Shown: positions 2,557-19,349 of the stretch, piece after piece
Layout of the letters: each line of letters opens with the position of its first letter
How positions within the stretch are numbered: the stretch's first letter is position 1
IMG/VR virus record: IMGVR_UViG_3300027933_000004
DNA length: 29,233 nt
Source of the DNA: a virus
Strand: one strand, 5' to 3'
Position numbers and translations under genes: made by a program
The notes under the pieces: model-generated
The model's database searches: none
The model's input: only the letters and a program-made list of their open reading frames with translations
What the model was told of the DNA's origin: nothing

Positions 2557-3180
2557 TTAAAACAAAGAGCCATAGCACTTTCCTTTAAATTCACAATTTT
2601 TGCATAAGAAATTATTTACTCCCGGCACGTTTTTATAATCTTTTTCGTTCAAGTATTCTTTATATTTCTTTATCCATTCAATTGCTTTTTTTGCGTATTC
2701 TTCTATCAATTTTTGGCCGATTTGAAATTGTTTAACCTCCCTATTTGTTCTGTTCAAATATATAATATATACATTATCAATTTTGTAATTCTGTTGCTGG
2801 AGTAAGTAATAATATGTAGCAATTTGATAAAGGTGATATTCTTTTATCTGGAAATAGTTGATTGAAATTGTTTTTAATTCAATTAGATCATTTCCACAAA
2901 TTAAGTCAATTCGGCCACTAATTTTCACACCTTCAATTTCTCCTTTAACTTCAATTTCATTTTTACAGTTCAATTTTTCAGTAAAATATTCTTCTATATG
3001 TCTGTGATGTTGTTCTCCAAGATCCAGACTAATTTCATTAATCCCCTTTTCAAATTCAAATTTTCTGGTAAAATAGCTTTTTCTAAAACAAATTCCGATT
3101 TCGCTTGGAAATATTGTATCTTCTGTATATTTTACTTTGAAGCTTTGTTTTACAAATTCTTCGTAATTCACAATTATCAT
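2557..3180 (-). CDS. Cas4-like (RecB-family) ssDNA nuclease, SIRV2 gp19/P207 homologue (207 aa)
   Basis: Motifs GRIDLI...LIELKT (D...ExK), QIATYYYL (QxxxY), one N-terminal Cys (GICFRK) plus C-terminal [10 protein letters not shown], a four-Cys set as in Cas4. I chose ATG 3180 because it forms an ATGA overlap with the upstream stop and gives exactly 207 aa. The track start 3225 would overlap the upstream gene by 49 nt. Confidence 0.85.
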
Positions 3181-4490
3181 GCCTCCAAATTGGAAAATCG
3201 CATTAATTCTATCAGCCTTTGGCATATTTCTTCGTTAGTTTTTTCACCAATTTTTAAATCTATATCTAATGCTTGAAGAATTATTTGAATATCTGTTGAT
3301 TGTTCTTGTCGTCTCGATTCTAAATTATTGCAAGTTATATAATTATTAATGCTATTTATTTTCTGTTGTATTAATTCTACTAATGCCCGCAAAATTGACG
3401 GATATAGGACTCGTGAATTTATAATTTTATCGTAAGTTTTCTTAATTGCTAATTGGATAATATGAATTCTATCTAAAATTGCCGGAGTAAATATTTCATA
3501 ATTTGCTAGATAATCTTCTATATCCGGAGTTTTAAGTTTATTAATTGTCATACTATGTGGATTTCCAGCGTAAACAATTGGAATACATTTTTGTATAGTT
3601 GCGGATTTGGATTCTGTTCCCGCTCCTCTAGTCCAAATACAATTTTCTATACCAGTGCTTAAAGTTGAATTTATAGTATTTAGTTCTCTTGCAGAAAATC
3701 CATTTTTCCAAGTTTGAATCTCATCAAATATTAACCCATTTGAGAGAAATACTGCTCCATACATGTTATTTCTAGCATCATAAACTAAATTTGCATAAGT
3801 TGGAGATTCAGTATAATATCTGAAATTAAAGACTTCTTGAAGAATCATAAAAGTCGTAGTTTTCCCAGTTCCCCTATTGGAAATTTCTATATAATTTATT
3901 TGACGTTTTGTAATTGGGGATTTAAATAATGGGAATAAACGTGGGAGAGTTAGAAATATATCTTTCGCTTCCATTTTTTGCGGGTCATAACCAAAAGCTT
4001 GTAATAAAAGATCACAAGTTTGTTTTTCAGAATTTGCAAGTTCGAGTAATTCTTTTGCAATTTCATAATTATTTGGTGGTTCAATAGAATAAATATCATT
4101 AATATACCAATTTTCTGTTCCTTTTTTAATTTTTACAAACATATAACTACTTATTAAATTATAGAAATCGTCTGGATTATCTGCAATTTGATGAGGGTCA
4201 AAACTTGCAGTAAATCCATTTTGAAATCTTGCTACTATTTCATCATTTTTAACTTTAAAGTTAGTGATTTTCGAGATAAATTTTATTTCATTGAAAAACG
4301 GCAAATTGGCGTTAAAATATTGTTGGTCAATTCCACGCTTATAAGCTTTTAAAATCTCAATTTTCTTTTTCTCTTCAATTTGTTTCTCTCCAATGATAAT
4401 ATTTAAAATGCGTTCATTATCACGGGGATTATAAAAAAAAGAGTGAGATTTGACTTTATCCAAAAGCGGGGATGAACTGCTCATAAACAA
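3177..4490 (-). CDS. ssDNA-annealing ATPase, SIRV2 gp18/P436 homologue (437 aa)
   Basis: Walker A NRGTGKTT and Walker B GLIFDEIQ. Its position between the SSB-like gene and the Cas4-like gene matches SIRV2. Confidence 0.85.
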
Positions 4491-4509
4491 AAAAAAGGGG
4501 TATGACGTT

Positions 4510-4911
4510 TTAAAACTCTTCTTCTACGTTTCTCTTTTCTCTTTTTCTCTCCTTCTTTTGTTCTTTTTCACTTTCTTCATTTTCTTCCATTTCTAGTTCT
4601 TCTTCTTGCACGGAATTGTTATTTCTTCGTGTGAATTTTACATATTCATTAAGCAAATCTGCATACTTTGTTAGAAATTCTGAGATAAGTCTTAAATCGT
4701 CTGCATCATTAGCAGTTATTCCAAGTTGTTTTCTGAAATTATTTTGGCTGTGTATAGTTAGTGAATATCTTACTTTTCCGTCTTGAGGAATTGCATTTAG
4801 TTGCACTACAATTCGCTTTATACCTTTTATCTTTAGAACTCTTGACATTATTTTATTCTGTTCTTTTGCCTGTTTTCCTAACGTGTCTAATATTTCTTTA
4901 AGGCCTGGCAC
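4510..4911 (-). CDS. ssDNA-binding protein, SIRV2 gp17/P131 homologue (133 aa, GTG start)
   Basis: First gene of the gp17-gp18-gp19-type operon. It has the size of P131 and a highly acidic/charged C-terminal tail. A GTGA Shine-Dalgarno-like sequence lies 9 nt upstream of the GTG. Confidence 0.7.
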   Translation of the reverse strand: MPGLKEILDTLGKQAKEQNKIMSRVLKIKGIKRIVVQLNAIPQDGKVRYSLTIHSQNNFRKQLGITANDADDLRLISEFLTKYADLLNEYVKFTRRNNNSVQEEELEMEENEESEKEQKKERKREKRNVEEEF

Positions 4912-4956: not shown

Positions 4957-5012
4957 TTGTTAACTTGCTAGTTTGCCTCAATGACTTCAAAAAAAGCGTT
5001 ATAAAAAAATAT

Positions 5013-5285
5013 TTAACTTAGTTGGAAGAATATAGATCTTATTATCTTCGCAATTTTAATATTATATTTCCTTGACAATTCGTCAAGTTTTTTATAATAT
5101 AGTTCATCAATTGTGAAAAATACCCTTTCGTCATAAATTTCACTGCTTTCAATTTCTCTAAAGTCTTTTTGTTGATTTAATATTTTGTCGATTTCCTGTT
5201 TTATTAAGTTCCTTTTCTCATAAAAAAGAGTTTTGTATTTTGACGGTATCCTTAATTCTATGTATTTGTTTTTTTGTCCTTTCAT
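5013..5285 (-). CDS. Ribbon-helix-helix-like DNA-binding protein (90 aa), possibly a tandem double RHH
   Basis: C-terminal VFFTIDELYYKKLDELSRKYNIKIAKIIRSIF fits the strand-helix-helix pattern. N-terminal YIELRIPSKYKTLFYEKRNLIKQEIDKIL looks like a second copy. Confidence 0.6.
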   Translation of the reverse strand: MKGQKNKYIELRIPSKYKTLFYEKRNLIKQEIDKILNQQKDFREIESSEIYDERVFFTIDELYYKKLDELSRKYNIKIAKIIRSIFFQLS

Positions 5286-5301
5286 TATTGTTCATGCTCA
5301 T

Positions 5302-6777: not shown

Positions 6778-7182
6778 ATGGCAAAGGGGAGAACTCCAAG
6801 ATCCTATTCGCAGAGATATGCAAAGTGGAACGCAAAGTTCACGTCATTCTCAAACCCTACCGTAGCCTCTACAATATTAACTAACGTTAGTCCTGCTGCT
6901 CAACAAAACTTCCAAACTAACGTTCCTAAATTTACTAGTGTAAATGAGCAAGTATCTGCAGTATTATCAGAATATGGAATAACTGGTCCTAATCGAGCAA
7001 TTTATCAAGGCTTCGGTCTCAAGGTTGCTAGGGCACTTAACAGACTTGGCGGCGGACCTGCTTTAGTCAACATGATTAACGGACTTAAGGCATATTATAT
7101 CTCAGCATTTAATGCAAATCCTACAGTATTAGACGCAGTGACAAATATAATAACTGGATCGCCTACTGGATATGTAAGCTAA
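6778..7182 (+). CDS. Rudivirus major capsid protein (134 aa)
   Basis: MAKGRTPRSYSQRYAKWNAKFTSFSNPTVASTILTNV...VTNIITGSPTGYVS is near-identical in length and sequence to my memory of SIRV2 P134. Confidence 0.95.
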   Translation: MAKGRTPRSYSQRYAKWNAKFTSFSNPTVASTILTNVSPAAQQNFQTNVPKFTSVNEQVSAVLSEYGITGPNRAIYQGFGLKVARALNRLGGGPALVNMINGLKAYYISAFNANPTVLDAVTNIITGSPTGYVS

Positions 7183-13543: not shown

Positions 13544-16500
13544 ATGAGTTTCCTGCTGAATCTTGGTGACTTAGGTACATTTTTTAGCGATGAATTGTCA
13601 GCGTTAGAAAATTTTGCAAATTGGGTTAGTTCAGATTTCATTAACTTTATAAATAGTATAAGCACGGATATACAAAATGCACTTTCTTTTATTGGACAGG
13701 CAATTAGCGATATTCCAACATTTATGCAAAAAATTGGTACTAACTTCTTAACTGTCTTGCAGAATTTTATACAAACTGCAATTCCAGTTATTAATGGATT
13801 TGAAAAATGGTTTTCCCAACAAATTCTAGGCCTGTTAGCCGATTTATCTTCCTTAGCATCAGATTTTATAAATAGTGCTTACAACACTTTTCAAAATGCA
13901 GTTAATACATTCGCAAATTTAGTAAATGGAGTTGTTCAAGATATTTTAAACGGATTTGGCTTAAATTTACCACATGTCGGCGGTGCGATTTTCCAAATTG
14001 CACAATTTATAACACCATTTATTGTTCCACTTACATTAGCAAAATTCTTACCTGCAATAACTGAAGGAATAGCTGACATTTTGCCAGAGATTGAAATAGA
14101 TTTAGCACCAATTGGACTTGGTGGAAAAGTTCCGCTCCGATTTGGAGAAATTGTAAAAGGAGTCGCCGAAGCCGGAGTTGATTTTTTAAACGAATTGCGA
14201 AACGATATACAAAGCACACTTAAGGAGTTTATAAAGGAGCCATTTATTTCAGATTTTAAAATTACTGCGAGAGAATTATTTAATGAAATAGGACTTGGAG
14301 ATTTGCCATTTGCTGACCCGCCATTTAAAGAAATTGCAAATTGGGTGGGTGCAAGATCATTTGATGAAATTAAAGATCATCTGCAAGAAACAATTTTATT
14401 AACTGGATTTCCTGCATGGTTTACAGACGCTTATTTAAACTCTCCAATTGATGACTTTATTCCTGGAAATCCGTTATTTAGACCAGTAAATATAAGAGAT
14501 ATAATTTTAGCGTCACAATATGGAATTTTGAATTTTGACGCTGTTTCCAAATACGCATATAACAATTTGATAACTCCGAAAACTGCTAAATTAATGTATA
14601 CTAATCAAACAGCTAGACTTTTGCAAAGAGCAGTTGAAGAAGGAATTAGACAATTTATAGTTTCTCCAGAAAAAGCTTATCAAGAAATAATACAAAATGT
14701 AAATTTAGCTGGAAAGGATCTATTTTTAAAAGTTTTTACTCTTGAGTATAATTACGCAGTCCAAAGAATTGTAAGACAGTTTTTAAGAAGTTTGTTATCA
14801 AGGGCCTTAACAAATTTCGGAAGGCCTTACATAGACCTAAAGTTTTTAGAAACTACAGTTCAAAAGTTATTTAAAGAATTAAACTATCCAACTCAAGTTC
14901 AAGACGTTTTTAACGTGATGATAGAACAATCCCAAATAGTTTATACTAATCAATTACTTTTGACACAATTGGAACAAATTACTAAGTTAGGAATATTTGA
15001 CGAGAAGAAGATAAAAGCACAATTAAAAGCTAATAAATTTGATGAAGCAATTGCACTAACAATTTTACAGTTTGAACTTCAATATGTGCAATTACAACAC
15101 ATTCTTAAAGAGATTCAATCTAAACTACAAAATTACATTATTAGCATAAGTGATGCAGAAAAAGAGTTAAAAGCTTTAGGATTTGATTCTTCTATAATTT
15201 CTGAAACAATTTTTGAATATCAAACAGTTCCATTAACAAAATATCAAATTTCACAGATTGAGAATTTGGCGAAAAAAGGATATATTTCAACTGATGAAGC
15301 TAAAAAGCAATTACATGCGTTAGGCGTTATTGCTGAGTTTGAAAATATATTTGTTAATTACGTAAACCAAGACATTACAATATCTTCGACCTTGAACGTA
15401 TTAAAACAACAATTGCGGAACTTCTTAATTGATTTAAAATCTGCAGAAACCGAGTTGAAGAAATTAAAAATAAATGAATCGTTAGTAAACGAGATAATAC
15501 AAGAAGAGTATATTACAAATATTACTAAATTACAATTATCGTTAGTTGAGACAATAGCTAAAACGCTTTATTACGATCAGACCCAATTAACTGGCGAACT
15601 TTCTAAAATTTTGAAGGATAAAAACGCAGTTGAAGTTTACGCACAAAAGTTTTACTTCGAGTATATATTTCCAAAACTTGTAAGTTATTACACACAATTA
15701 GCAAGACACGGTATTACTTCCAAGATTTCTAATTTGCCAAAAGAAATTGTGGAGTATGAAATTAATCCAGAAATTCAAATTTTCCAACTTACAACAGAAT
15801 TAGAATATATAAAATCGTTATTAAAAGATTTACAAATAACTTCAGATAAAGCAGTTCAAGAATTGGAGAGATTAGGAATGCAAAAAGATATAGCTAATTT
15901 ATTTGTGCAAACTTATATTCCAACACTTTACAGTTTACATACAGTTATTGGAAATATTGTGCAAGGCCAACTTTTTAAAGTTGGGAAAGTTCCCGTCAAT
16001 TTAGGAAATGCGGAATCGGAATTGAAAAAATTAGGAATTCCTGACAATCAAATTAAAGTATTAGTGGAACAATATGCCTCCAGTTTTGGTTTAGAAATTT
16101 GGAGAAAGTTCTTACCTTCACTTTCTCAAATTGAAACTGCAATAAAATACAATTATCCAATTAACCAATTAGTTGAATATTCATTTATACCATCTGAATT
16201 TCTTAACTTATATTCTAATTTATATCAATATGAATTAATTGGAATTCAAGTTCAATCATTAAAAACCGAATATATTCAATTATTAACTTATGGCGTGCAA
16301 AATATACAACTTGAAGGCCTGTTAAAGCAATATGGAATTAATGATGTTTTATTAGGAATTTTGAAATTATCGGCCCAAATTAGAAAATTGTTATTGGCTT
16401 ACCAAGAGCTTTATATTACGCCATCTAAAGCGTTATCGATTAGCGAATATGTATCAAATCCAACACAATTATTGCAAAAAGTATTTTCTGAGTTTCAAGT

Positions 16501-16720
16501 TCCCAGCGATTTGCAAAATACTTACTTAGAATATGCAAGAAATAGGAGAGTTAGCAGATACGTGAGTGAGATAATTTCAACAATTAATTTACTATTTGAA
16601 AAGCATAAAATAGATTTAAACACGGCTCAAACATATCTTCAACAATTGAAGAAATATGGCTTAACTGATGAAGAAATACAATTAATCTTATTAAACTGGC
16701 AGTTGAGAAGTGCATATTAG
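13544..16720 (+). CDS. Large minor structural / terminal-fibre protein, SIRV2 P1070 homologue (1058 aa)
   Basis: Size and position fit P1070. The N-terminus is hydrophobic and G/A-rich. The C-terminal half is an array of helical repeats. Confidence 0.9.
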   Translation: MSFLLNLGDLGTFFSDELSALENFANWVSSDFINFINSISTDIQNALSFIGQAISDIPTFMQKIGTNFLTVLQNFIQTAIPVINGFEKWFSQQILGLLADLSSLASDFINSAYNTFQNAVNTFANLVNGVVQDILNGFGLNLPHVGGAIFQIAQFITPFIVPLTLAKFLPAITEGIADILPEIEIDLAPIGLGGKVPLRFGEIVKGVAEAGVDFLNELRNDIQSTLKEFIKEPFISDFKITARELFNEIGLGDLPFADPPFKEIANWVGARSFDEIKDHLQETILLTGFPAWFTDAYLNSPIDDFIPGNPLFRPVNIRDIILASQYGILNFDAVSKYAYNNLITPKTAKLMYTNQTARLLQRAVEEGIRQFIVSPEKAYQEIIQNVNLAGKDLFLKVFTLEYNYAVQRIVRQFLRSLLSRALTNFGRPYIDLKFLETTVQKLFKELNYPTQVQDVFNVMIEQSQIVYTNQLLLTQLEQITKLGIFDEKKIKAQLKANKFDEAIALTILQFELQYVQLQHILKEIQSKLQNYIISISDAEKELKALGFDSSIISETIFEYQTVPLTKYQISQIENLAKKGYISTDEAKKQLHALGVIAEFENIFVNYVNQDITISSTLNVLKQQLRNFLIDLKSAETELKKLKINESLVNEIIQEEYITNITKLQLSLVETIAKTLYYDQTQLTGELSKILKDKNAVEVYAQKFYFEYIFPKLVSYYTQLARHGITSKISNLPKEIVEYEINPEIQIFQLTTELEYIKSLLKDLQITSDKAVQELERLGMQKDIANLFVQTYIPTLYSLHTVIGNIVQGQLFKVGKVPVNLGNAESELKKLGIPDNQIKVLVEQYASSFGLEIWRKFLPSLSQIETAIKYNYPINQLVEYSFIPSEFLNLYSNLYQYELIGIQVQSLKTEYIQLLTYGVQNIQLEGLLKQYGINDVLLGILKLSAQIRKLLLAYQELYITPSKALSISEYVSNPTQLLQKVFSEFQVPSDLQNTYLEYARNRRVSRYVSEIISTINLLFEKHKIDLNTAQTYLQQLKKYGLTDEEIQLILLNWQLRSAY
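14995..16700 (+). repeat. Periodic protein motif (about 48-aa spacing) in the C-terminal half of the P1070 homologue
   Basis: AEKELKALGFDSSII, AKKQLHALGVIAEF, AETELKKLKINESLV, TGELSKILKDKNAV, AVQELERLGMQKDIA, AESELKKLGIPDNQI, EGLLKQYGINDVLL, AQTYLQQLKKYGLTDEEI. Confidence 0.7.
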
Positions 16721-16731
16721 ATAAATTCGTC
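16720..16731 (+). promoter_or_regulatory. TATA+GTC promoter of the ligase-like gene
   Basis: gataaattcGTC lies 20 nt upstream of ATG 16752. Confidence 0.65.
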
Positions 16732-16751: not shown

Positions 16752-17567
16752 ATGAGCGTAAATTTATGCAGATATGAGACACAAAATATAGGTTATAACG
16801 ATTTGGAAAAATTAGGAGATAATGTTTATTATGAAATTAAATATGACGGTACTCATATTTGTTTAAAGTTTGAGAACGAATTAAAAATTAATACTAGAAA
16901 TGATATTCCTCATGAAAAATCGTATCAGAATTTATTTTATCAAGTTGCAGGAATTGATGAAGTTATTAAATTTCTAAAGAAAAATTCACAATATATAATT
17001 CATGGAGAACTAGTACATAAGAAAACGTCAGGTATGCAAATACATACAAATGAAACACCTATATTTGTAATATATGATATATTTGATAAAGAAAATAACA
17101 AATATTTAGACCCGTTTAAAAACCATTTCGAAATTTCTTCATGGTTTATATTAAATTACTATAATATCGAATATATTTTAAACATAGTTTTGAAAGAAAG
17201 GTTAGAAGGAATAGTTGCTAAATTATATAATTATGAATCAGAACAATGTAAGGAAGGGCAAAATTTTAACTTATGCGTTTATAAATACAAACCTTATTTC
17301 TCAACTTTAGGAGTTATATTCAAACCTGTTAGAAAAGAACTTGATGTTAGAAAATTGTCATTTTTATTAGGAGAAATTGATAATGATTTGAAATATAATA
17401 AAAATAATTGGTATGAGAATCATCCAGAACTTTACGAATTCTTTATTAAAAATAAAGATAAGATAATAAAAATACTTCAAAATCAAAACATTGTGTTGCA
17501 AATACAAAAAGATACACATTTAGATATTAATAAAATAAAAGAATATATAAAAAATTTCGAAAGATGA
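16752..17567 (+). CDS. ATP-dependent ligase-like covalent nucleotidyltransferase (271 aa)
   Basis: All five nucleotidyltransferase motifs are present in order: I EIK30YDG, III IIHGE86LV, IIIa IFVIYDIFD, IV E152GIVAK, V VYK178YK180P. Confidence 0.8.
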   Translation: MSVNLCRYETQNIGYNDLEKLGDNVYYEIKYDGTHICLKFENELKINTRNDIPHEKSYQNLFYQVAGIDEVIKFLKKNSQYIIHGELVHKKTSGMQIHTNETPIFVIYDIFDKENNKYLDPFKNHFEISSWFILNYYNIEYILNIVLKERLEGIVAKLYNYESEQCKEGQNFNLCVYKYKPYFSTLGVIFKPVRKELDVRKLSFLLGEIDNDLKYNKNNWYENHPELYEFFIKNKDKIIKILQNQNIVLQIQKDTHLDINKIKEYIKNFER

Positions 17568-17618
17568 TAATAATGACAACTAGTGATATACGTTATATTA
17601 TGTATAAGTTGTGTGTGG

Positions 17619-17629
17619 TTTTTTACGTC
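17619..17629 (+). promoter_or_regulatory. TATA-like+GTC promoter
   Basis: ttttttacGTC lies 19 nt upstream of ATG 17649. Confidence 0.55.
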
Positions 17630-17648: not shown

Positions 17649-19349
17649 ATGCCTACGCCATATCCGACAAAGTTCAAATTGCCGTTGGAATATTTGACGT
17701 TACAAGACTGGAATAACTTTGTGCAAAATTTATTATTTATAAATCAATATGGCCCAGGAAAATTATTACAATATTATCAAAATGGCAATTTTCAAAACCT
17801 AGATGAGGTTATTGCAAAATATTTATATGTTTCGGCTCTAAAAGTTGCCGGATATAACGTTTTACATAATTTATCTGAACCGTTAGCTTATACTTTTGGC
17901 GAGGGAAATCAACAGCCATTTAAAACCATGACAAATAGACCGACTGTCGCTTTTCCATATTCAATACCTATCAAATTTGTGGAATTTTATCCAATATCTA
18001 AATTGCCTAACTATCAATTTCTTGTTTTTCCAATTGAAAAGTTACAAGTTAAATTATCACAAGTTAGCAAACAATTACAACTTTTAATTCCTAGACTAAT
18101 AAGTAAAATTGCAACTCCGACTAGTATCGCAGGCACACAATTTCAATTTTCTGGAACTGCAACTGTTCAACAACTTGTTGAAAATTATCTTGACCCGTCT
18201 TATTTACAATCTTGGAGAGAAATAACAATACAAAATCTAGGAAGTTCTGCAGTTCAAATAAATAATGCAATTTATTTAATGCCAAAACAATGTCTAAAAT
18301 TAACTACAAGTTCTCCTAGTGAAATTCAATTAACAGCTCAAACTCCAACACTTTTAAGCGAAGAAATTGAATTTACAGCAATTCCAACAGTTGCTTATAC
18401 AATTACAATAACAAATAATCAGGCTGATCCTACTCCTTCACCGTTTCAACAATTACTAAATTTAGATTTATCATCTATATTATCAAGTTCTAGCCAGCTT
18501 TTGAATTTAGAATTTTGTCTAGACACACAATGTAATACACCATTATACGCTTGGATTGAAAGTTATAATTCTAATTTATCAAGTGTTTATATTTGGATAA
18601 AATTACCAACTTCAATTCCAGCTAATTCATCAATTACAATTTATATGTTTATCAGGAATTCTATACAATATCCTTATACTGGGATATCGCCAACTTTAAC
18701 TTCTACATATGCACAATATGATAATGGCGAAAATGTATTTACTTTTTATGATAATTTTGCTGGAACTACATTAAGTTCAAAATGGATACAAGTTACAGCT
18801 CCACCTTCTGGAGTAATAACTGTAAATAATGGAGTATCAATTATAAATACTGTAAATACAATTTATTATGTTTCTTCACAATCATTTACAGCACCGTATA
18901 TAATTGATCAAGCTGGAATTCTTGGAGTTTGGGCTGATGATGGGCCATGGTTTGATTTAGAAAGTACAACATCAAGTTCTGGAACTGGATATTTATGGGC
19001 AACTAGAGGTCCAAATGTTGCTAATGATGGTCTTTATACAGATAATAATGGAAGTTATTCAGCTTTTGCGGCTGCGTCCAGGAGCAGTGGTTCTTCAAAC
19101 TTTACAATTTATACTTTAGAAGATGTTGGTGGAAGTTCTGGAACAATAAATACATATGTTAATTATAGTCTATGGCTTTCCGGTAGTTCAACAACATTTC
19201 CACATTCTGGACATTTCTCACCATTTAGATATGGTAATAATAATCCTCCACCATCTGTAATTTATTGGGTCAGAGTAAGGGCTTATCCGCCAAACGGTAC
19301 AATGCCTTCAAACAGTCAGCCACAGAAAACAATAATACTAGTCCAGTGA
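17649..19349 (+). CDS. Minor structural protein, SIRV2 P564 homologue (566 aa) with a DUF2341-like + ConA-like lectin C-terminal half
   Basis: Size and position fit P564. PLYAWIESYNSNLSSVYIWIKLPTSIPANSSITIYMF fits the DUF2341 pattern. It is followed by NVFTFYDNFAGTTLSSKW, typical of ConA-like lectin/glucanase domains. Confidence 0.85.
   Translation: MPTPYPTKFKLPLEYLTLQDWNNFVQNLLFINQYGPGKLLQYYQNGNFQNLDEVIAKYLYVSALKVAGYNVLHNLSEPLAYTFGEGNQQPFKTMTNRPTVAFPYSIPIKFVEFYPISKLPNYQFLVFPIEKLQVKLSQVSKQLQLLIPRLISKIATPTSIAGTQFQFSGTATVQQLVENYLDPSYLQSWREITIQNLGSSAVQINNAIYLMPKQCLKLTTSSPSEIQLTAQTPTLLSEEIEFTAIPTVAYTITITNNQADPTPSPFQQLLNLDLSSILSSSSQLLNLEFCLDTQCNTPLYAWIESYNSNLSSVYIWIKLPTSIPANSSITIYMFIRNSIQYPYTGISPTLTSTYAQYDNGENVFTFYDNFAGTTLSSKWIQVTAPPSGVITVNNGVSIINTVNTIYYVSSQSFTAPYIIDQAGILGVWADDGPWFDLESTTSSSGTGYLWATRGPNVANDGLYTDNNGSYSAFAAASRSSGSSNFTIYTLEDVGGSSGTINTYVNYSLWLSGSSTTFPHSGHFSPFRYGNNNPPPSVIYWVRVRAYPPNGTMPSNSQPQKTIILVQ

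Follow-up and report, generated by a model that had tools for sequence, protein, structure and literature searches.

A Sulfolobus rod-shaped virus genome was found to carry, between two large structural genes, a small gene whose product is probably an accessory polynucleotide ligase, ATP-dependent and of the RNA-ligase type, judging from its sequence and its modelled fold. Usarudivirus-type SIRVs may carry or lack this cassette, which always occupies one site in their conserved structural block. The window, meaning the whole stretch of 29,233 nucleotides analysed here (IMG/VR record IMGVR_UViG_3300027933_000004), represents a new Usarudivirus-like SIRV. The region has ~80% DNA identity to the Yellowstone Sulfolobus islandicus rod-shaped viruses SIRV4-11 and to isolate V60, all of the genus Usarudivirus.

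The ligase ORF was read from the ORF listing and its translation (16752..17567, + strand, stop included). It starts with an ATG at 16752, ends with a TGA at 17567 and encodes 271 aa. Two domains were delimited. The nucleotidyltransferase (adenylyltransferase) domain covers residues 1-181 (16752..17294, + strand), as revealed by invariant alignment columns, hhalign and Foldseek, and the codon of its motif I lysine, K30, lies at 16839-16841. The remainder, residues 182-271 (17295..17564, + strand), was predicted by AlphaFold2 to form a family-specific, all-helical C-terminal domain of six helices. Upstream on the same strand lies a 1058-aa gene (13544..16720), a homologue of SIRV1 ORF1070 and SIRV2 P1070 whose annotation is minor capsid or structural protein. 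Downstream follows a 566-aa gene (17649..19349, + strand), a homologue of SIRV1 ORF562 and SIRV2 P564. In both SIRV1 and SIRV2 the P1070- and P564-type genes adjoin (ORF1070/ORF562 in SIRV1). Both the positions and this comparison agree with the initial annotation, which had placed the gene between the two homologues, had taken the pair to be adjacent in SIRV2, and had described the gene as inserted there; it is an extra gene relative to SIRV1 and SIRV2, from which it is absent.

A promoter-like element of the ligase gene was read from the sequence immediately behind the stop codon of the 1058-aa gene (16721..16731, + strand). It consists of a TATA-like A/T-rich box, ATAAATT (16721-16727), followed by GTC (16729-16731), 23 nt before the ATG; the whole spacer to the ligase ATG is 31 nt long. 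The stretch TAAATAAATTTGTCA was kept in all 15 orthologous ligase loci (15/15). An A/T box with GTC at -18 to -32 was found upstream of 11 of the 28 ORFs of the window, against ~8% expected from the GTC frequency, and the 566-aa P564 homologue is preceded by one of its own (GTC at 17627-17629, at -22). A TATA-plus-GTC promoter type has been described for SIRV, and the element of the ligase gene matches it. The gene thus appears to have its own, predicted promoter, as the initial annotation had it.

Orthologues in SIRV4-11 and V60 had 67-71% protein identity; the gene is annotated as 'hypothetical protein' in SIRV4-11, and the V60 record is blank at the locus. To count occurrences, all contigs of the viral collection that encode the C-terminus of the 1058-aa protein were considered, which gave 23 informative junctions. 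The ligase gene was present at 15 of them, each time between the P1070 and P564 homologues. The eight junctions without it came from SIRV1, SIRV2, five Usarudivirus-like contigs and a third Icerudivirus-like genome, of 32,995 bp. For isolates V3 and V65, coverage of a 2.5-kb query was only 58% and the ligase gene was missing; in V3 the two large genes lie 88 bp apart. When junctions with and without the gene were compared, the flanks aligned up to the upstream stop plus TAAATAAAT and resumed ~10-25 nt past the ligase stop. The gene-less genomes keep 25-45 nt at the site, for which no convincing alignment to the gene-bearing junctions was obtained, the alignment being over-fragmented by the gap settings.

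When 50,697 phage and archaeal-virus records were searched with the protein, the gene turned up in these Sulfolobus viruses only, and none of the remaining rudivirus genera in the phage collection had it. The ligase gene is known only from North American Sulfolobus rod-shaped viruses, and even there its conservation, which the initial annotation had left to be checked, is patchy. Isolates V3, V60 and V65 all propagate lytically (PMC9319562). Since V3 and V65 do so without the gene, like the gene-carrying V60, it is dispensable for replication in laboratory hosts. The ligase gene is outside the core replication machinery. The earlier suggestion that its product seals the nicks left by Rep and Hjc during replication was not upheld, with the gene missing from all eight gene-less junctions named above and from the lytic V3 and V65.

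Motifs I, III, IIIa, IV and V of the covalent nucleotidyltransferases, recognised in the initial annotation, were all located in the translation in canonical order: motif I as E28-I-K30-Y-D-G-T-H35, motif III as H84-G-E86-L-V, motif IIIa as F105-V-I-Y108-D109-I-F, motif IV as E152-G-I-V-A-K157 and motif V as K178-Y-K180. A further basic residue of the domain, R49, is Ia-like. Across the 31 viral orthologues (61-100% identity), K30, G33, H35, R49, H84-G-E86, F105, Y108-D109, E152-G153, K157 and K178 were invariant, and K180 nearly so. A joint alignment of 13 sequences, comprising seven viral orthologues and six cellular homologues of ~25% identity, left K30, D32, G33, T34, E86, F105, D109, E152, G153, K157, N171, N173 and K178-Y-K180-P invariant in the catalytic part, and E208, H224, L227 and F230 in the C-terminal part. 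The histidine noted earlier in place of arginine after motif I, His35, was found in all viral orthologues. The cellular homologues have Gln at this position, and neither residue is the ligase Arg or the Rnl2-type Asn. The loop at residues 91-98 was modelled with low confidence yet is highly conserved in sequence. All 17 ligase coding sequences examined were intact (17/17), and their median dN/dS (Nei-Gojobori) was 0.17, with 0.16 for the catalytic and 0.18 for the C-terminal part, a ratio that is rough because synonymous sites are near saturation. Judged from these coding sequences, the gene is clearly under purifying selection.

In the Pfam scan, the window protein matched DNA_ligase_A_M (PF01068) with 34.2 bits (cut-off 26.2) over residues 18-90 only, and RNA_ligase (PF09414) with 34.2 bits (cut-off 27) over residues 25-157, most of the domain. 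Both families matched all 31 orthologues, among which PF09414 gave the stronger match (best 1.6e-12 versus 8e-9 for PF01068). Several observations on sequence count against an RNA-ligase reading: the tie of the two Pfam scores at 34.2 bits, weak NCBIfam matches to NHEJ DNA ligase models, far under their cut-offs, and the resemblance of motif I, EIKYDG, to that of DNA ligases. PHROGs yielded a full-length match to phrog_12949 ('unknown function', 8e-132) and a weak one to phrog_114, ATP-dependent DNA ligase (4e-5). The window protein matched neither PF09511/TIGR02308, the T4 Rnl1 family (Pfam and NCBIfam scans), nor TIGR01209, the archaeal Rnl3 model. With E allowed up to 10, the Pfam scan likewise gave no match to profiles of capping enzymes, OB domains or DNA_ligase_A_C. 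Neither the protein nor the 31-sequence profile found anything among PDB sequences at E<=10, and the same search with a PF09414-type relative as query returned noise only.

An exhaustive search of 1.84 billion representative proteins with the viral profile retrieved only 18 at E<=1e-3. Ten of the matches outside the family itself were scanned against Pfam, and eight of the ten had PF09414; the other two, P0039 and P0049, are full-length relatives that carry no annotation. The PF09414-bearing relatives are about 195-320 aa long. When the viral profile was compared by hhalign with an alignment of 12 PF09414-type matches, the two paired with 99.4% probability over residues 20-163, which takes in motifs I, III, IIIa and IV and excludes the C-terminus. 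P0039 aligned with the viral protein at 27% identity (E 5e-11) across both the catalytic and the C-terminal domain. It is metagenomic, from a contig of just 1.2 kb, and belongs to a family whose members, 314-324 aa long and unannotated, come from a few metagenomic contigs and from Sulfolobales.

The cellular homologues come from Stygiolobus caldivivus (P0057), Sulfurisphaera ohwakuensis (P0059) and Metallosphaera javensis (L049 7770-8744), and this Sulfolobales group provided the sole full-length relatives of the viral ligase found. A reverse search of all phage records with the Stygiolobus protein matched Usarudivirus genes only. Like the viral ligase, the Sulfolobales proteins have all catalytic residues as well as the C-terminal E208, H224 and F230; unlike it, they have an additional helical N-terminal stretch of ~55 aa. 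They are encoded by chromosomal stand-alone genes in variable regions. In Stygiolobus, a HEPN/MNT pair lies ~1.2 kb upstream of the homologue, an arrangement not repeated at the other loci. The Sulfolobales homologues have no Pfam match on record, and a direct scan of P0039 gave none. Because its residues are shared in the joint alignment, the helical C-terminal domain can be considered a conserved part of this small family. The putative ligase family, as delineated by these searches, is specific to Sulfolobales and their rudiviruses.

The AlphaFold2 model, based on the 31-sequence alignment, was confident (pLDDT 87, pTM 0.81), with a mixed alpha/beta fold in the first 181 residues and helices only, without strand or OB fold, in residues 182-271. 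The remark in the initial annotation that the C-terminal ~90 aa are too short for a standard OB domain is in line with this all-helical prediction. Foldseek returned 84 PDB matches at E<=1e-3, and all of the best 50, which were examined, were ligases or ligase-containing complexes (probability 1.00), with no capping enzyme among these 50. They were led by T4 Rnl1, archaeal Rnl3 (P. abyssi, Palaeococcus, Methanobacterium), the fungal Trl1 ligase domain, Naegleria Rnl5 and T4 Rnl2, at E about 1e-7 to 1e-5; the top matches also included an Aquifex entry whose deposited name is 'putative ATP-dependent DNA ligase'. Well-characterised DNA ligases (the NHEJ ligation complex, Thermococcus, T4, ASFV) started at rank 33, with E about 2e-5 and above. 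The gap between RNA and DNA ligases is ~two orders of magnitude only, and TM-scores are modest (0.4-0.5, maximum 0.51). In the BFVD viral structures, the SIRV11 orthologue came first (UniProt 'RNA ligase domain-containing protein'), and most other matches were viral RNA ligases.

Modelled alone, the C-terminal domain again gave six helices (AlphaFold2, pLDDT 93.5), with the conserved core F204-x-L-G-E208-I-D-N-D-L213, W220 and N223-H224. It had no Foldseek match in the PDB with E<9, small helical domains being hard to match, and Foldseek gave no assignment to the Rnl1, Rnl2 or Trl1 types of C-domain. The lack of a match to a known RNA-ligase C-domain tells against the RNA-ligase reading, as does the narrow Foldseek margin over DNA ligases. 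The check by AlphaFold and Foldseek proposed in the initial annotation gave a confident model that matches ligase nucleotidyltransferase folds, with RNA ligases above DNA ligases. Similarity to the ligase fold is evident from both Pfam and Foldseek, and there is good support for placing the protein in the covalent nucleotidyltransferase (ligase) superfamily.

Within this superfamily, the RNA-ligase type is favoured because of the absent OB fold, the family-specific helical C-terminal domain, the nearest sequence relatives and the fold ranking. The initial annotation had left DNA ligase, RNA ligase and capping-type enzyme side by side; its ligase-type covalent nucleotidyltransferase stands, and fold neighbours, nearest relatives and domain layout favour the RNA-ligase type among the three. 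By superfamily homology, Lys30 would attack ATP, the presumed cofactor, to form enzyme-AMP, in a nucleotide pocket predicted to be lined by E86, F105/D109, E152/K157 and K178/K180. The AMP would then be handed to a 5'-phosphate end, and attack by a 3'-OH would seal the break. Since a catalytic domain followed by a helical module is the layout typical of RNA ligases, the enzyme probably prefers RNA, or a duplex that contains RNA, as its substrate.

A stand-alone ligase requires 3'-OH and 5'-phosphate ends. Pfam scans of 21 of the larger ORFs of the window found no kinase, phosphatase, cyclic phosphodiesterase or similar end-healing domain. Repair of RNA breaks with 3'-OH and 5'-phosphate ends would be the most coherent role. 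During infection, the enzyme might mend broken tRNA, rRNA or viral transcripts, possibly against host RNases that leave 3'-OH/5'-phosphate ends. PADLOC gave nothing significant for viral or cellular members, and no conserved neighbour was common to the homologue loci in Stygiolobus, Sulfurisphaera and Metallosphaera. An RNA-repair or counter-defence role is consequently a conjecture, as no conserved partner gene or link to a defence system was found. The full proposal would be a new RNA ligase family of Sulfolobales and rudiviruses, with its own helical C-terminal domain, acting as a stand-alone counter-defence that rejoins tRNA, rRNA or viral RNA broken by the host, at ~80 C and without an end-healing partner; taken as a whole, we consider it distinctly improbable. 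If true, the protein would be an archaeal-virus counterpart of T4 Rnl1 acting against anticodon nucleases, and the patchy presence of the gene in near-identical SIRVs would mirror a patchy RNase defence among hosts.

The protein could instead be a minimal DNA ligase whose task is to close nicks in viral DNA that arise from Rep nicking-joining, Hjc resolution, hairpin-end formation or heat and acid, with the helical C-terminal domain clamping DNA in place of an OB domain. The partial PF01068 match above cut-off (residues 18-90), the phrog_114 match at 4e-5 and the weak matches to NHEJ ligase models speak for such an enzyme. When its nucleotidyltransferase core is superposed on the DNA ligases of T4, ASFV and archaea, the rmsd is about 5-6 Angstrom across about 210-220 columns, and the window encodes Hjc and further DNA-processing proteins whose products need sealing. 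However, the OB domain and motif VI are absent, and we know of no DNA ligase that lacks an OB domain. Moreover, His35 replaces the motif I Arg (KxDGxR), and RNA ligases rank above DNA ligases both by fold and by sequence. The absence of the gene from the other rudivirus genera of the phage collection and from the lytic V3 and V65 argues that the host ligase suffices for replication. A DNA ligase is, on balance, unlikely.

Two readings without ligation were also weighed. The protein might be a non-ligating nucleotidyltransferase: a capping-like GTP/ATP transferase working on the 5' ends of RNA, an RNA/DNA 5'-adenylyltransferase, or an enzyme stalled at the adenylylated intermediate that modifies or blocks host nucleic acids. 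The superfamily does include capping enzymes, the C-terminal domain is unique, and position 35 (viral His, cellular Gln) is atypical for ligases. Yet the top fold matches were all ligases, capping profiles were unmatched by Pfam at E up to 10 and an OB domain is absent, which makes such an enzyme very unlikely. To our knowledge, archaeal mRNAs are not capped. A capping enzyme as such was rejected on the lack of a profile match and of an OB fold. Finally, a gene flanked by two virion-protein genes and often lost could be a dead or decaying ligase remnant, tolerated or structurally used within the structural gene block. Against this stand the catalytic residues, invariant in the 31 orthologues (K180 nearly) and all invariant when the cellular homologues are included, as well as the dN/dS of ~0.17 at saturating dS and the 17 intact coding sequences. 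We regard a remnant as hardly credible; a pseudogene was rejected on the intact ORFs, the invariant motifs and the low dN/dS.

No rudiviral ligase was described in the rudivirus literature open to full-text search, in agreement with the initial annotation, which knew of no ligase among the described functions of Rudiviridae. The word 'ligase' is absent from the papers on SIRV4-11 (PMC5454432) and on V3, V60 and V65 (PMC9319562), the former giving putative annotations for two variable genes only, a DNA-binding protein and a dUTPase (PMC5454432). In the supplementary tables of a survey of anti-defence genes in archaeal viruses, there is no polynucleotide ligase entry for the ligase gene (PMC11065993). 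Automatic labels exist, 'RNA ligase domain-containing protein' in UniProt and 'ATP dependent DNA ligase domain' at JGI, so the domain call is not new. Nor is the gene itself, contrary to what the initial annotation implied: it is already present in SIRV4-11 and V60 and labelled automatically by UniProt. The analysis adds the characterisation of a separate ligase family that has a C-terminal domain of its own, together with its relatives in cells and its presence/absence polymorphism, all of which are new.

Within the literature searched, this is the first candidate rudiviral ligase. The variable genes of archaeal viruses are for the most part uncharacterised, and this one encodes a recognisable enzyme; its site is inside the conserved structural block, not at the ends of the genome. 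For the Sulfolobales proteins, which are without domain annotation, the viral protein provides a first functional clue. Sulfolobus hosts grow near 80 C, and a compact 271-aa ligase from a Sulfolobus virus could serve as a reagent. According to a 2023 review, the characterised ligases of thermophilic viruses are all moderately thermophilic Rnl1 enzymes (PMC10423840). With CRISPR-based genome-editing methods published for SIRV (PMC6315595), and with V60 carrying the gene and V3 and V65 being without it, a phenotype test is feasible.

The candidate RNA ligase was compared with several known ligase families. PF09414, which we take to be the Rnl2-like clade (T4 Rnl2, the kinetoplastid editing ligases and the Rnl5 enzymes DraRnl and NgrRnl), shares with the viral protein a similar size of about 270-300 aa and the layout of a catalytic domain with a helical C-terminal module; the structures of T4 Rnl2 and Naegleria Rnl5 were among the Foldseek matches. 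In contrast, catalytic identity to the PF09414 relatives is only ~25%, the C-terminal domain appears not to be homologous, the alignment ending at residue 163, and the relatives carry the motif I K-x-D-G-S-N where the viral protein has KYDGTH. The C-domain of the viral protein is helical, as is that of T4 Rnl2; Foldseek of the viral domain alone gave no PDB match, a search that is difficult for small helical domains.

The archaeal Rnl3 enzymes (Pyrococcus abyssi Pab1020, Palaeococcus pacificus, Methanobacterium) gave the best PDB TM-scores, 0.48-0.51 (2vug, 8uce, 5d1o, 3qwu), and are likewise archaeal and thermophilic; two of the sequence relatives, P0043 and P0046, had weak TIGR01209 matches. 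Rnl3 enzymes have an additional N-terminal domain and a dimerisation domain. At about 375-380 aa, they are larger than the 271-aa viral protein, which is without the additional N-terminal domain. The Chlorella virus PBCV-1 DNA ligase and other minimal PF01068 ligases share the compact catalytic domain and the motif order, and the PF01068 match above cut-off falls on the region of motifs I-III, whereas the viral protein has neither an OB domain nor motif VI, and has His for Arg behind KxDG.

The top single Foldseek match was T4 RNA ligase 1 (RnlA; 2c5u, E 1.7e-7). Unlike T4 Rnl1, the viral protein did not match PF09511, the superposition reached a TM of 0.44 at 16 Angstrom rmsd, and no polynucleotide kinase-phosphatase partner was found among the window ORFs scanned. 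Both proteins are virus-encoded and non-essential and have a helical C-terminal domain. T4 Rnl1 is a phage tRNA-repair ligase that mends host-inflicted tRNA breaks, and it offers a functional analogy for the rudiviral enzyme.

The junction between the P1070 and P564 homologues, in which the ligase gene lies, also varied in other respects among related viruses. In one related virus contig (L037, IMGVR_UViG_3300005859_000002), an additional ORF of 107 aa (4974-5297) separates the ligase gene from the P564 homologue, and a second viral contig, L027, carried ~120 additional bases at the same position. Accessory genes therefore appear to be gained and lost repeatedly at this junction, within an otherwise conserved structural block.

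Four of the Usarudivirus-like contigs whose junction lacks the ligase gene (L029, 4098-4140; L030; L031; L034) kept TAAATAAAT directly 3' of the stop codon of the P1070 homologue, the sequence that forms the A/T box in the promoter of the ligase gene. After it comes AAAAGGAAGACAACA, a sequence similar to the ligase gene's final codons and 3' flank (AAAAGATGACAACA), although the alignment was not conclusive. These features suggest that the ligase gene may have been lost from these junctions by deletion, rather than being primarily absent.

Comparison of the rudiviral junctions revealed a near-palindromic element, CATATACATAATATTATGTATAAG, with the core ATACATAAT|ATTATGTAT, immediately 5' of the P564 promoter (window 17585-17610; 3741-3768 and 6786-6815 in the viral contigs L004 and L003, respectively). 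It was found at nearly all rudiviral junctions, with or without the ligase gene, and twice each in SIRV1 and SIRV2. The window copy is imperfect (GATATACGTTATATTATGTATAAG). The element could be a terminator of the upstream gene or a binding site for a regulator.

In the ligase model, residues 91-98 (K-T-S-G-M-Q-I-H, window 17022-17045) formed the only low-confidence loop (pLDDT below 50). The same residues are among the most conserved stretches of the protein, with K91, T92, S93, Q96 and H98 invariant, and they aligned with a conserved K-G-K-S-P-T loop C-terminal to motif III in PF09414 relatives. This is probably a mobile, substrate-binding loop.

Elsewhere in the window, the usual rudiviral gene trio was present on the minus strand (2557-4911). 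At 2557-3225 it encodes a PD-(D/E)XK/Cas4-like nuclease, at 3177-4490 an ATPase that matches the BrxL-like Lon ATPase domain, and at 4510-4911 a PHA01746-like protein; none of the three is an RNA end-healing enzyme.

Full-length homologues of the viral ligase, 314-324 aa long and with no Pfam hit on record, are encoded by the chromosomes of the Sulfolobales Stygiolobus caldivivus (L045, 10001-10963), Sulfurisphaera ohwakuensis (L047, 10001-10945) and Metallosphaera javensis (L049, 7770-8744). In Stygiolobus, the gene has IS elements nearby and a HEPN/nucleotidyltransferase toxin-antitoxin pair at a distance of ~1.2 kb. Four cysteines of the viral ligase (C6, C37, C166 and C175; gene at window 16752-17567), invariant in 31/31 aligned viral orthologues, were missing from the cellular proteins in a joint alignment. 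They could have a virus-specific role, either in disulfides that stabilise the protein or in a metal site. Compared with the viral ligase, the cellular proteins carry an additional N-terminal helical stretch of ~55 aa.
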